Shown here: positions 7,009 to 20,000 of the stretch, piece by piece
Layout: each line of letters opens with the position of its first letter
Position numbering within the stretch: the stretch's first letter is position 1
IMG/VR virus record: IMGVR_UViG_3300000154_000005
From: an uncultured virus (IMG/VR IMGVR_UViG_3300000154_000005)
Taxonomy: Duplodnaviria > Heunggongvirae > Uroviricota > Caudoviricetes
DNA length: 20,000 bases
Reading direction: 5' to 3' (one strand)
Translations under genes and position numbers: made by a program
The notes under the pieces: generated by a model
Seen by the model: only the letters and a program-made list of their open reading frames with translations
What the model was told of the DNA's origin: nothing
The model's database searches: none

Positions 7009-7506
7009 TTAACAAACGCCGGAGATCATCTTTAGAAATTCTTTGCGGGTAATATTAGAGCCACCTTCCCATAATTTTCTTAGAGTAATTGCCTTTCGTT
7101 TGGCTTTATCATTCCCGAATTTTTTAATAGAAAAAGATGCGCTTTTATGAGTAGATGTACTAGGTGTTCCAAAATAAGCTCGCCAGCTATTGTTATTTTT
7201 AGTAAAAAAAACCCCAGCAATCCCACTAGTATTTGTAGAATCTAATCCACTATATTCTAGATGTGATAATTCTTTATGGTTTCTTATAGTACTTTCAACA
7301 GTTGCATCTGGATTTCCAAATGATATATCCATTCGCAAGAATTTCCCTATCTTGAATGCATCTTTTTTATCATACCTTCCATCAAGAGGTATACGATGGT
7401 TTCTATAATTATCGTTTCCTCGTCTCCCATAAGTAACCGATATATAAGGAACCTTATTAATTACCACTTCATTAACTCCGCGCATATGCTGATCTTCAGT
7501 ATTCAT
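7009..7506 (-). CDS. AP2-domain DNA-binding protein (possibly two AP2-like modules, no HNH domain)
   Basis: NTSGIAGVFF...WRAYF...FSIKKFGNDKAKRKAITLR matches the phage/bacterial AP2 pattern. Confidence 0.75.
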   Translation of the reverse strand: MNTEDQHMRGVNEVVINKVPYISVTYGRRGNDNYRNHRIPLDGRYDKKDAFKIGKFLRMDISFGNPDATVESTIRNHKELSHLEYSGLDSTNTSGIAGVFFTKNNNSWRAYFGTPSTSTHKSASFSIKKFGNDKAKRKAITLRKLWEGGSNITRKEFLKMISGVC

Positions 7507-8319: not shown

Positions 8320-8559
8320 ATGAAACTAACTCATGATACAGAAAATACAGTAATGCATAGCTATTGGAAAACTGATCCAGAATGGAAAAATAGTTTTATA
8401 TTATTTATGAAAGAGCCTACACTTGAAAATGCTATAAATATATATCATTTAAAATCGAAACATTTTGAGAATAACGCATGGACTTCAATCGGCTTCCTCT
8501 CTTGGTTCGAAGACCCATCTCAAGAACTAATCAACTACGTAAAACTAATGGATTCCTAA
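8320..8559 (+). CDS. family A paralog (79 aa)
   Basis: AAGGA RBS; EPTLENAINIY core; tail WFEDPSQELINYVKLMDS. Confidence 0.85.
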   Translation: MKLTHDTENTVMHSYWKTDPEWKNSFILFMKEPTLENAINIYHLKSKHFENNAWTSIGFLSWFEDPSQELINYVKLMDS

Positions 8560-8797
8560 TGCAATTATCAAAAGAAGTACTTTGCGATTTAATAGATGTT
8601 GATGAAGATGTATGGAAACATGATGATTGGAAAGAAGTGTTTTTAATATTCCACAATAATCCAACATTCGAAAATGCCATAAATATATACCAATATAAAA
8701 TTAATAATTTCGATAATGATATATGGGATAAGGGTTCTTTCTTCACCTGGTTCGAAGACCCATCTCAAGAACTAATCAACTACGTAAAACTAATGGA
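8503..8797 (+). repeat. perfect 50-bp direct repeat (8503-8552 and 8748-8797) encoding the tails of two adjacent genes
   Basis: TGGTTCGAAGACCCATCTCAAGAACTAATCAACTACGTAAAACTAATGGA occurs twice. Confidence 0.95.
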
Positions 8798-8804
8798 GTC
8801 TTAA
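8559..8804 (+). CDS. family A paralog (81 aa)
   Basis: Start moved to the TAATG overlap at 8559; NPTFENAINIY core; tail WFEDPSQELINYVKLMES. Confidence 0.85.
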   Translation: MQLSKEVLCDLIDVDEDVWKHDDWKEVFLIFHNNPTFENAINIYQYKINNFDNDIWDKGSFFTWFEDPSQELINYVKLMES

Positions 8805-9043
8805 TGCACTTACGAGAAGACATAATTACTCAATCCTGGCACTCTACCACTCCAGATGAAATTGAATGGCGAGACGGATTCTTTAAGATGGCAGCCGATC
8901 CAACGTTCGAAAACGCTATAAATATATATCATATGTTTAGACAAAGACATTCAGAACAACAAACATGGAGCAACACATTCTATGCTTGGGTTATAAACCC
9001 TACTCAAGAACTAAAGACATATATAAAACTACAGGAGGTATAA
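8804..9043 (+). CDS. family A paralog (79 aa)
   Basis: TAATG overlap; DPTFENAINIY core; tail WVINPTQELKTYIKLQEV. Confidence 0.85.
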   Translation: MHLREDIITQSWHSTTPDEIEWRDGFFKMAADPTFENAINIYHMFRQRHSEQQTWSNTFYAWVINPTQELKTYIKLQEV

Positions 9044-9312
9044 TGCAAATAAATACAACGGTAAAAAAAGCGACTATTGAATGTCCTGTTGATTATATCC
9101 CCGATAGTCAAAATAGACTAACAGCATCTCTACATATTATGTTAAATTCACATGGTTATTATGAATGGTTTAAGAATAAAGAATCATATAAGTATGAAGA
9201 TATATCAATTTCTGATATAAATAAATTAATACAAGTATATCCAGATATATTGAAGTATTGTAAAGATGTCCCAGAAACAGTCATAACATATCATAAGATG
9301 TGGTGGTCTTAA
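9043..9312 (+). CDS. hypothetical protein with family A tail (89 aa)
   Basis: GGAGG RBS and TAATG overlap at 9043; tail YCKDVPETVITYHKMWWS. Confidence 0.8.
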   Translation: MQINTTVKKATIECPVDYIPDSQNRLTASLHIMLNSHGYYEWFKNKESYKYEDISISDINKLIQVYPDILKYCKDVPETVITYHKMWWS

Positions 9313-9524
9313 TGAAATTATCCGAAGAATCTATTAAGATTATAAATAAAAAATGGAGGAAGAAAAGAAATAATAGGGGGTATAAACAAGCTTTATTGAA
9401 TTTTCACAGAAAACCAAGTGAAGAGAATGCATGTATTGTTTGTAAATTTTTTCCTAAATCTATTAATAATATTAAAGATCCAACACCAGCAGTCGAAACT
9501 TATAATAAATTATATTGGAGTTAA
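9312..9524 (+). CDS. family A paralog, basic N-terminus (70 aa)
   Basis: TAATG overlap; KPSEENAC core; tail NIKDPTPAVETYNKLYWS. Confidence 0.85.
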   Translation: MKLSEESIKIINKKWRKKRNNRGYKQALLNFHRKPSEENACIVCKFFPKSINNIKDPTPAVETYNKLYWS

Positions 9525-9736
9525 TAGTGGAATTATCTGATAAATTTGTTCAAATGTTAAAAGAACCACCACATACTTCTTGGGATATTAAATGGAAATT
9601 ATTACTATTAGAATTTGAGAAAACACCAACTGAAGAGAATGCATATAAAATATGTAGAGTAGCAGACCATACTATAGAAGTAATTAAGAATCCAACAACA
9701 GCAGTCGAAAACTATAATAAATTATATTGGAGTTAA
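9478..9736 (+). repeat. 47-bp direct repeat, 44/47 identical (9478-9524 and 9690-9736), at the 3' ends of two genes
   Basis: ATCCAACA(C/A)CAGCAGTCGAAA(CT/AC)TATAATAAATTATATTGGAGTTAA. Confidence 0.9.
9527..9736 (+). CDS. family A paralog (69 aa, GTG start)
   Basis: GGAG RBS inside the previous tail; TPTEENAY core; tail VIKNPTTAVENYNKLYWS. Confidence 0.85.
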   Translation: MELSDKFVQMLKEPPHTSWDIKWKLLLLEFEKTPTEENAYKICRVADHTIEVIKNPTTAVENYNKLYWS

Positions 9737-9738
9737 AA

Positions 9739-9948
9739 ATGAGATTATCCTATGCATATACATTATTATTAGATAATAAGTCTTGGAGATATTGGGATAA
9801 TATTTGGGTAAATATATTAATAAAATTTAGAGATACCCCAATCGAAGAGAATGCATATGCTATTTGCAGACGTTCTCCTTATGCTATAGAAATGATTGGA
9901 GATCCAACAGAAAATGTAATTAGATATAATAAACTGTACTGGGCGTAA
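9739..9948 (+). CDS. family A paralog (69 aa)
   Basis: GGAG RBS; TPIEENAY core; tail MIGDPTENVIRYNKLYWA. Confidence 0.85.
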   Translation: MRLSYAYTLLLDNKSWRYWDNIWVNILIKFRDTPIEENAYAICRRSPYAIEMIGDPTENVIRYNKLYWA

Positions 9949-9978
9949 AAAACGTCCTTTATTTTTTAAAGGATTTGA

Positions 9979-9990
9979 TATAGATATAAT
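9979..9990 (+). promoter_or_regulatory. putative phage promoter TATAGATATAAT
   Basis: Exact motif copy; no long ORF downstream. Confidence 0.7.
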
Positions 9991-9996
9991 ATAATA

Positions 9997-10215
9997 TCAA
10001 GCTACCGCCACTATACTCTATAAGTCGGTGGCCCGCTATAGTTTAAGTATTATACTGGTGTGAGTTTTAACTTTACCCATGTTAACTTACGGCAGCATTG
10101 TCTCTATTATAAAGATAATGCTTAAAATTATGGTAGTATTTCATGGGGGTAGAGTTGTCCATGAAATGAAGTAATAACTCAGGTTTACTCGAGATAGTAA
10201 CCTGAGTTATTACTT
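9997..10215 (+). ncRNA. candidate ~220-nt structured non-coding RNA
   Basis: Promoter motif upstream. Hairpins at 10007-10032, 10037-10054, 10057-10077, 10094-10122 and 10138-10167, a possible closing stem 10001-10006/10132-10137, and a 17-bp terminal stem. Confidence 0.55.
10169..10215. terminator. perfect 17-bp inverted repeat between convergent units (probably bidirectional)
   Basis: AAGTAATAACTCAGGTT ... AACCTGAGTTATTACTT. Confidence 0.75.
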
Positions 10216-10233
10216 GTAAAATAAAAATATATT

Positions 10234-10584
10234 TTATTTCTTTTCTTGGCCCATCTTCTTGACATCTTTATCAAGATCAAGACCATTAACATAAGAAATA
10301 AGTGTAATAGCAGTATCTACGGCAACTCCGACTTTTTCTAGTCTCTTATTGCGAATAGCTAGATTCTTAGTTGGATCACTATTAATTCCACCGACACTTG
10401 ATGTTGTATTTGAAAAAATGCCAGCTAAAATTGTAGACGCAGACTGAACAATTTGATGTTTTAGTAAAGCTTCTTGTTGAGCTTTCATTTGCATCTTCTG
10501 CATAAATAATTGTTTTTGTTCTTCTGTGGGCTCTGTTTGAGTATCAGACTGTGCTTCGTGGGTAGGTGTATTTTCTTCAGACAT
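10234..10584 (-). CDS. hypothetical protein (116 aa), Q/E/T-rich N-terminus, monocistronic
   Basis: AAGGAG RBS; has its own promoter motif and terminator. Confidence 0.85.
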   Translation of the reverse strand: MSEENTPTHEAQSDTQTEPTEEQKQLFMQKMQMKAQQEALLKHQIVQSASTILAGIFSNTTSSVGGINSDPTKNLAIRNKRLEKVGVAVDTAITLISYVNGLDLDKDVKKMGQEKK

Positions 10585-10639
10585 AGGTTAGGCTCCTTAA
10601 AGGTAAAATGAAAAATCTAAAAATATTAGATTCTAATAT

Positions 10640-10693
10640 ATTATATCTATATATTTTTGATTCAAGCTTTCAATTATCTCATATAGATATAAT
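10640..10693. promoter_or_regulatory. back-to-back divergent promoters (10640-10651 minus; 10682-10693 plus)
   Basis: Two exact TATAGATATAAT copies in opposite orientation, 30 nt apart. Confidence 0.75.
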
Positions 10694-10724
10694 AGAATAT
10701 AATTTACTTATTGGAGTACTAATA

Positions 10725-10937
10725 ATGATCGACTGGAGTAACCCTTCTTTACTTAAAACAAAAACTGGATCTTGGATCCACTATATTACAAAGAAAGGAA
10801 GACATCCTTTCAGACATATTGGTTATATTGAAGATAATAATAAGTTACATGCTTGGGATGATGATGGTAATAGTGTTTATAATGTAGAAGATTATTCAAT
10901 TATAGAACCAATATTTGAAGGTATTCAAAATGAGTGA
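10725..10937 (+). CDS. hypothetical protein (70 aa), probable paralog of the next gene
   Basis: Start moved to ATG 10725 (GGAG RBS, downstream of the promoter); IGYI...LHAWDDDG. Confidence 0.75.
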   Translation: MIDWSNPSLLKTKTGSWIHYITKKGRHPFRHIGYIEDNNKLHAWDDDGNSVYNVEDYSIIEPIFEGIQNE

Positions 10938-19893: not shown

Positions 19894-19923
19894 TATAGAA
19901 TCACCACGTTTTCAAAGATTTGA

Positions 19924-19935
19924 TATAGATATTAT
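19924..19935 (+). promoter_or_regulatory. putative phage promoter, variant TATAGATATTAT
   Basis: Motif copy followed directly by two hairpins. Confidence 0.65.
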
Positions 19936-19941
19936 ATATAA

Positions 19942-20000
19942 AGAATTAGGACTTGTCCTAGTTCTCACAGATTTAACCTTCGGGTTAATCCCTGGAGTTT
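19942..20000 (+). other. start of a structured RNA or leader, truncated by the window edge
   Basis: Hairpins AGAATTAGGA-CTTG-TCCTAGTTCT (19942-19965) and GATTTAACC-TTCG-GGTTAATC (19970-19990, cUUCGg loop). Confidence 0.45.

Follow-up and report, generated by a model that had tools for sequence, protein, structure and literature searches.

The subject of this work is a gap between genes in a 20,000-nucleotide (nt) stretch of DNA, called the window here, from an uncultured virus (IMG/VR record IMGVR_UViG_3300000154_000005). The window corresponds to positions 44122-64121 of the 106,480-bp record, read on the minus strand; coordinates below are counted from the first letter of the window, and negative ones lie outside it. 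The gap extends over 285 nt (9949-10233) and contains no open reading frame (ORF) of 40 or more amino acids (aa) in any frame. On its left side, an upstream operon of small ORFs is closed by an intrinsic terminator found in a terminator scan (9941-9966, plus strand; hairpin 9941-9957, then TTTATTTTTT), and the stop codon of the ORF at 9727-9948 falls inside the terminator hairpin. Nine bases past the T-run of this terminator begins a phage promoter motif (9976-9990, plus strand), and the sequence behind it can fold into a series of helices that ends with a long terminal hairpin (10169-10215). On the right side, a 116-aa gene on the minus strand (10234-10584) converges on the same hairpin. The first-pass annotation of this DNA had proposed here a promoter-driven, structured non-coding RNA and had offered decoy, anti-defence or RNA polymerase-binding functions for it. 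In our analysis the interval 9976-10215 stands as a discrete, ORF-poor unit running from promoter to terminator, with a strong fold of about 215 nt, and the specific roles are unsupported.

The promoter motif in front of the unit, TGATATAGATATAAT, had been called exact, and the copy at 9976-9990 does match at 15 of 15 positions, with a T-rich upstream element at 9960-9975. The motif is enriched. The 15-mer has 5 exact copies in the record and 28 with at most two mismatches, and its 12-mer core TATAGATATAAT (at most one mismatch) has 15 occurrences in the window, where shuffled sequence gives 2.12 +/- 1.48 and none of 200 shuffles reaches 15. Record-wide there are 35 such core matches. A Shine-Dalgarno (SD) sequence and an ORF of at least 30 codons follow 20 of them within 60 nt, and in this the motif behaves like a promoter. 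Another 8 are followed by such an ORF only farther off or by artefact, and 7, the copy at 9976-9990 among them, have none within 200 nt. The upstream element of most copies reads GTTTT(C/T)A, about 11 nt before the motif, and that of the present copy reads TTTTTTAAAGGATT. The features that define the promoter class of this lineage (the core, a T-rich element about 11 nt upstream and a gene after it) are thus all found at 9976-9990, and the copy most similar to this one is located at 19921 (a match of 90% identity).

A canonical sigma-70 site is not called at 9976-9990 by a -35/-10 scan. The record encodes two beta'-like proteins and one beta-like protein of RNA polymerase. Since the phage has its own polymerases and the sigma-70 scan is silent, these observations suggest a phage-specific promoter. 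The position of the transcript start may be read from the record's tRNA-Met gene (-9000 to -9077, outside the window), whose 5' end is located 8 nt after a promoter copy. This copy ends 7 nt before the tRNA, and therefore the motif also drives RNA genes. By this measure, transcription probably starts 7-8 nt past the motif, which for the present unit gives about 9998 (9997-9999), 3 nt before the first helix. Another promoter copy lies about 180 nt upstream of the record's tmRNA, and the initial transcribed bases TATCAA are common to it and to the unit at 9976-9990. The tmRNA itself (-40232 to -40589) is full and in one piece, with the tag ANDEFYAPVALAA, and is preceded by the promoter copy and a 40-codon ORF.

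For 9995-10220, the folding energy of the plus strand is -77.2 kcal/mol versus -48.1 +/- 4.0 for its dinucleotide shuffles (z -7.2), none of 200 of which is as good. The minus strand of the same region gives -67.1 kcal/mol (z -6.25). With the terminal hairpin removed, the core at 10001-10167 keeps a z of -4.06, and the junction domain (10001-10137) alone has -3.61 on the plus strand versus -2.63 on the minus strand. It had been remarked that G-U pairs favour the plus strand, and the two folds contain 9 and 3 of them, respectively; this strand bias, in energy and in G-U pairs, agrees with the direction of the promoter. A further comparison, in which the plus-strand fold was threaded on the minus strand, returned an energy below the optimum of that strand; this is an artefact of scoring non-canonical pairs, and the comparison is discarded. 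We also scan the whole record in 170-nt segments (step 50, both strands, n=4254) with the energy regressed on GC content. The segments over the 9976-10215 region rank 2, 3, 4, 6 and 10 of the 4254 for structure. The GC content of the unit is 0.37, as compared with 0.30 for the genome, 0.58 for the tRNA and 0.47 for the tmRNA.

According to the optimal fold, the 5' part of the RNA is a multi-helix domain (10001-10137, plus strand) arranged as a five-way junction. It is closed by P1 (GCTACC/GGTAGT, 10001-06/10132-37) and would contain P2 (GCCACT/GGTGGC, 10007-12/10027-32), P3 (10033-42/10049-58, which includes the pairing TATAGT/ATTATA at 10037-42/10049-54), P4 (10059-71/10081-91) and P5 (AGCATTGTCT/AGATAATGCT, 10094-103/10113-22). 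This domain is followed by the hairpin P6 (ATTTCATGG/CCATGAAAT, 10138-46/10159-67), with a G-rich loop of 10-12 nt, pair probabilities of 0.91-1.0 and a z of -3.9, and then by the terminal hairpin. Six of the seven stems listed in the first-pass annotation are in the minimum-free-energy fold. The remaining one, GGTG..GAGT/ACTT..TACC, is present in the sequence but is out-competed by the pairing 10059-65/10085-91 (probability 0.8-0.99). The pairs of P4 and P5 have probabilities of 0.6-0.99, and P4, P5, P6 and the terminal hairpin are robust, mostly above 0.8. The pairs of P1-P3 are at about 0.5 because an alternative fold of -75.5 kcal/mol is only 1.7 kcal/mol above the optimum. In this alternative, a 5' hairpin of 7 bp (10001-07/10026-32) stands beside a three-way junction, which is closed by the pairing 10035-44/10125-34. 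The domain thus has two predicted candidate architectures, of which the five-way junction is one. The P2 loop (10015-20) and the P6 loop (10150-55) have a 6-nt Watson-Crick match, which provides a possible kissing contact.

The next question is whether the unit could code for a protein. Its longest candidate is an ORF of 31 codons on the plus strand (10079-10174, MLTYGSIVSIIKIMLKIMVVFHGGRVVHEMK), which had been described as lacking a clear ribosome-binding site (RBS). We find the same: the 18 bases before it (TGAGTTTTAACTTTACCC) hold no SD-like motif of the GGAG/AGGA/AAGG type. In the predicted fold, its ATG is paired in helix P4 with a probability above 0.9. The other ORF in the unit has 11 codons and is likewise without an SD. 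Judging from these features, the 31-codon ORF is probably not translated.

Among known RNA classes, no counterpart of the unit is found. ARAGORN calls no tRNA or tmRNA gene in the window, and in 9900-10300 Rfam has no match from the tRNA clan even at E<=10, in agreement with the earlier view that the unit is neither of these. A search with the 4227 models of Rfam 15, which include riboswitches, ribozymes, 6S, SRP, RNase P and marine metagenome motifs, gives no family at gathering score; the RNA belongs to no curated family, and its standing as a class of its own is unsupported. At E<=10 there are weak matches, mostly on the terminal hairpin; the best one scores 24.7 bits against a threshold of 67 and covers the terminal hairpin only. 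The same two programs detect the record's own tRNA-Met (47.5 bits) and tmRNA (114.6 bits), one of each, and therefore their silence on the unit is informative. Two other classes fit poorly. A leader or riboswitch is rejected, since it would need a same-strand gene behind it and none is found before the terminator; the gene that follows is convergent, and the first plus-strand gene after it is served by a promoter copy of its own. A type I toxin mRNA is disfavoured, with no SD at the 31-codon ORF and no minus-strand copy of the promoter motif within the unit.

The probable 3' boundary of the unit is the terminal hairpin, which exists on both strands with 20 bp (10169-85/10199-215 and 3 inner pairs). 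It has an energy of -25 kcal/mol, with z of -8.0 on the plus strand and -8.3 on the minus strand, and its core CTCAGGTT/AACCTGAG is placed between an A-rich 5' arm and a U-rich 3' arm. Checked as a rho-independent terminator, 10169-10215 has a bulged stem and a U-rich tract, UUAUUACUU, within the 3' arm, and it is absent from the list of the simple scan. By its layout it is probably a bidirectional terminator, common to the RNA unit and to the convergent 116-aa gene, whose stop codon is 18 nt away from it. This gene has its own promoter copy (10640-10654, minus strand), with an SD 55 nt downstream of the copy. The protein belongs to no Pfam or PHROG family and has one homolog, at 69% identity, which is encoded on 2 contigs. 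The next plus-strand gene is also served by its own promoter copy (10679-10693). The two copies form a divergent, back-to-back pair (10640-10693, 27 nt apart), the minus one leading to the 116-aa gene and the plus one to a gene of 70 codons; the ORF call at 10608-10937 probably starts too early.

We search for relatives of the unit in several collections. Blastn of the unit and of the surrounding 5 kb against 50,697 phage records gives no match. In IMG/VR, the neighbouring radical-SAM protein used as an anchor leads to 2 loci at 28% identity that are not relatives, and a 538-aa protein, the RNA polymerase beta' protein and an alignment of the small-ORF family lead to no relatives at all. An alignment of the 116-aa protein with its one homolog finds nothing in IMG/VR, JGI metagenome contigs or GTDB genomes, and more generally none of the collections searched (phage records, IMG/VR, JGI metagenomes, GTDB) has a close relative of the phage. 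A 24-mer of the unit has no match in IMG/VR, and a 20-mer has one metagenome locus, a chance match with no likeness outside the 20 bases. A DNA pattern of the stems hits at least 116 non-specific loci. A covariance model built from 10001-10167 finds nothing in a set of 83 loci that includes the 80 of these that were scanned, and nothing in the 30 loci of the promoter pattern; in the record itself it finds only the unit, hence there is no paralog. The promoter pattern gives 120 single, scattered matches in GTDB genomes, and of its 30 loci in IMG/VR only one record (G002 in our numbering) is a relative.

As to published collections, one catalogue lists 10,006 candidates for structured RNAs of viruses (PMC10690425); it requires at least three IMG/VR regions and reports RNAs of 29-151 nt. 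Four 16-nt words of the RNA are absent from 6 of its supplementary files, three further files lying outside the search. As to targets, a duplex scan of the RNA against 142 crudely defined translation-initiation regions of the record has a best energy of -37.5 kcal/mol, where the minima of shuffled RNAs are -33.6 +/- 3.0, and yields no outlier. As to expression, contigs from five sequencing runs contain part of 9500-10700, and four of these runs were mapped. Contigs of two marine RNA libraries cover 10317-10602, over the 116-aa gene. One such contig has 11 differences over a length of 117 nt, pointing to a variant strain that co-occurs.

The arrangement of promoter, ORF-less interval and terminator is not limited to this locus. 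The top-ranked structured segment of the record-wide scan (19942, plus strand) is also an ORF-less unit of this kind. It begins with the promoter TGATATAGATATTAT (19921-19935), occupies 19921-20000 and about 50 nt past the end of the window, and has two hairpins, a classic T-run terminator and, at 20063, the next promoter. A third unit is located on the minus strand (3090-2925), where a promoter copy (3090-3076) is followed by a terminator hairpin of 16 bp near 2960-2925. By visual inspection, the only ORF that it may contain is one of 16 codons with a TTG start. After the third unit comes another promoter copy (2882-2868), with a hairpin in a 113-nt leader. The tally of the record is at least three ORF-less units in addition to the tRNA and the tmRNA.

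The relative found by the promoter pattern has similar units. It is an IMG/VR record of 51,083 bp (27% GC, 18% complete) and a distant one: of the 44 large proteins tested it shares 4, at 38-53% identity, three of which are QueC, an amidotransferase and a radical-SAM protein. It contains 6 exact copies of the promoter core and 16 with at most one mismatch. Its minus strand carries five tandem cassettes at 38975-39975, each made of a terminator, the promoter motif, a well-folding unit of 130-220 nt and a terminator. The GC content of these units is 0.36-0.50 in a record of 27%, no ORF is flagged behind four of the five promoters, and none of the cassettes matches Rfam at gathering score. They are like the unit at 9976-10215 in the promoter motif, the gene-like layout and the lack of an Rfam family. 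They are unlike it in that there is no detectable homology; the best local alignment, to cassette unit C, has a z of 2.57, and the covariance model gives nothing convincing in this record (best 15.6 bits, on the opposite strand). Nor are they syntenic with it, the equivalent interval here being occupied by small protein genes. Taken together, the lineage seems to produce many small non-coding RNAs, with promoters dedicated to them, and therefore the present unit is more credible as a gene, a point that is silent on the role of the RNA.

Combining the information above, we develop a model of the unit. The sequence feature is real, well bounded and not an artefact, and it is a credible candidate for an orphan RNA gene. 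With moderate confidence, we take 9976-10215 to be an independent non-coding unit that produces a stand-alone, trans-acting, structured phage small RNA (sRNA) of about 215 nt. In the model, the phage-specific promoter at 9976-9990 would start transcription at about 9998. The transcript would then fold into the multi-helix 5' domain (10001-10137) and the stable hairpin (10138-10167), and it would end at the 20-bp hairpin of 10169-10215, which would terminate the convergent 116-aa gene as well. Once folded, the RNA would most likely act in trans as a protein-binding partner, a scaffold, a sponge or a decoy, and not as an mRNA or a linear antisense seed. We prefer protein binding over base-pairing, a weak inference, because the RNA is predicted to be nearly all helical with short loops and because the duplex scan gives no outlier target. 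Transcription, the RNA ends, the choice of fold, the partner and the function are what we infer from the letters of the DNA. A bolder version of the model looks rather improbable to us: the RNA would be one of a suite of independently transcribed structured RNAs that serve a lineage of marine giant phages with their own RNA polymerases during infection, and it would be the founding member of a new family. Its junction would be locked by the contact of 10015-20 with 10150-55, and the RNA would bind and neutralise a protein of the host, for instance a ribonuclease or a sensor of its defence.

Several points weigh against a trans-acting RNA. The minus strand folds well too, and therefore much of the signal stems from inverted repeats, which could be present in any intergenic region between convergent genes. 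The GC content of the unit is only modestly higher than that of the genome and is far lower than that of the tRNA and the tmRNA. With pair probabilities of about 0.5 in P1-P3, the five-way junction is not secure, and the match between the loops loses its significance on correction for multiple testing (by loop shuffles, p is 0.015 for that pair and 0.21 for any pair). The terminal hairpin has no clean U-run on the plus strand and is not listed by the terminator scan, so read-through is possible. No homolog of the RNA is found in the collections searched, hence there is no support from covariation, the one strong type of computational evidence for a functional structure. Finally, no contig covers 10002-10271; these contigs are of low depth and the source DNA run is equally blank there, which makes them uninformative on transcription.

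Some of these points are shared with an explanation in which no RNA has a dedicated function. On this view the gap would be an intergenic strand-switch region with terminators for the operons on both sides and with inverted repeats that act at the DNA level (a site of replication, packaging or recombination, or a decayed one), and the promoter copy would be spurious or vestigial. That both strands fold far better than their shuffles is what this explanation predicts, and it would sit well with the lack of homolog, covariation and transcript evidence. The intergenic regions of AT-rich phages are also rich in hairpins, and several other segments of the scan reach 3-4 standard deviations. It accounts poorly, however, for a promoter copy that matches at all 15 positions, has the T-rich element upstream and is closest to the copy before another ORF-less unit; for the excess of G-U pairs on the very strand that the promoter reads; and for terminators that bracket the unit as they would a gene, in a lineage that demonstrably sets the same promoter before RNA genes. 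We consider it unlikely. The convergent layout, with one hairpin common to both units, brings in a cis-antisense regulator of the 116-aa gene. The 3' hairpin would pair with the 3' end of its mRNA, or the transcript would read through across 10234-10584, and the 5' part would serve as a stabilising leader. Read-through is made easier by the missing plus-strand U-run and by the absence of the hairpin from the terminator scan, and a gene with its own strong promoter copy and with contigs in two RNA libraries is a plausible target of control. On the other side, so stable a hairpin (z about -8) with a U-rich 3' arm makes two-way termination plausible, and a simple antisense RNA would have no use for a further 170 nt of helices in which G-U pairs favour the plus strand; the probability that we give to this explanation is accordingly small.

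The first-pass annotation also raised an mRNA that is repressed by its own structure and codes for a small hydrophobic peptide. The peptide would be the 31-aa product of 10079-10174, and we compare its mRNA with those of type I toxins. The ORF is there, the N-terminal 21 residues of the product are largely hydrophobic, and a start codon buried in a helix is what one sees in toxin mRNAs that are translationally silent. The details are disfavourable to it. Most genes behind the same promoter show GGAG, AGGA or AAGG, and this ORF has no SD in the 18 nt upstream; the hydrophobic stretch is broken by two lysines; and between 9990 and 10640 there is no minus-strand copy of the promoter motif from which an antitoxin RNA could be made. 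We regard such an mRNA as very improbable, and the trans-acting structured RNA continues to be our preferred reading of the unit.

The record from which the window is taken has 30% GC and an estimated completeness of 41%. In addition to the polymerase genes, it encodes an NAD-dependent ligase, gyrase/topoisomerase subunits, ThyX and a split ribonucleotide reductase, and it carries QueC, QueD-like and radical-SAM genes. The DNA of the window is present in marine metagenomes, and the identical 116-aa neighbour protein is encoded on 7 contigs, the longest of which has 284,614 bp. The record represents part of an uncultured jumbo phage of marine origin. Several other features of the record are observed along the way. 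The large subunit of the ribonucleotide reductase is split in two ORFs by an ORF for a LAGLIDADG endonuclease (-8098 to -5124, outside the window), which suggests an intron or an intein. A gene for a NUMOD/I-HmuI-like endonuclease abuts the RNA polymerase beta-like gene, also outside the window, and no group I intron is called by Rfam at gathering score. Within the window, a 165-aa protein on the minus strand (7009-7506) has an AP2 DNA-binding domain (E 3.4e-10). The small ORFs upstream of the unit (8320-9948, plus strand) form a tandem family of 73-108-aa proteins that have in common a P-[TS]-x-EN-A motif and a C-terminal Y-x-KL motif and that match neither Pfam nor PHROG. A gene cluster of the 7-deazaguanine type (about 49652-61692 in window coordinates, outside the window) includes QueC, a 6-pyruvoyl-tetrahydropterin synthase-like protein, a glutamine amidotransferase and a radical-SAM protein.

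To our knowledge, almost nothing is known about the small RNAs of uncultured marine giant-phage lineages. Small RNAs of giant phages that have no known function are familiar from a few cultured models, and phage sRNAs of such a kind are not new. The more unusual aspect is that one promoter is used across the lineage for many ORF-less units. The combination of promoter, ORF-less interval and terminator can serve as a rule by which candidate RNA genes of the lineage are listed from sequence only. If these units are real, the lineage would invest unusually heavily in non-coding RNAs, and the 215-nt RNA would offer a manageable starting point for probing the structure and pulling down partners.

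How does the unit compare with RNAs that are already known? Phage-encoded, promoter-driven and highly structured small RNAs other than tRNAs include the pRNA of the phi29 family and the stable RNAs 'species 1 and 2' of T4, and the pRNA uses loop-loop pairing. The 6-nt loop-loop complementarity of the unit is reminiscent of the pRNA, a likeness that is not statistically significant. The contexts differ as well, the unit being neither at a genome end nor in a tRNA cluster. Another comparison is with the record's own tRNA-Met, an RNA gene that stands behind the same promoter motif; unlike the unit, the tRNA-Met and the tmRNA are detected by ARAGORN and Rfam and have a higher GC content. Among the giant phages, the Pseudomonas phage PA5oct has four transcribed regions without ORFs, ncRNA001-004, of which ncRNA001 is 236 nt long, and two of its ncRNAs are highly transcribed and have no database similarity (PMC7318152). 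For the phage 201phi2-1, 11 sRNAs are reported, 3 of them intergenic (PMC11512511). These RNAs and our unit are alike: ORF-less, in the range of about 200-600 nt, from a giant phage, with no similarity to known RNAs and no known function. The lineage and the habitat are different, our phage being marine and uncultured, and the likeness is one of description. The RNAs of PA5oct and 201phi2-1 are defined by their transcripts, whereas the present unit is defined by promoter, terminator and fold alone. In turn, the ncRNAs of PA5oct had no known promoters, and the promoter of the unit at 9976-10215 is much better defined.

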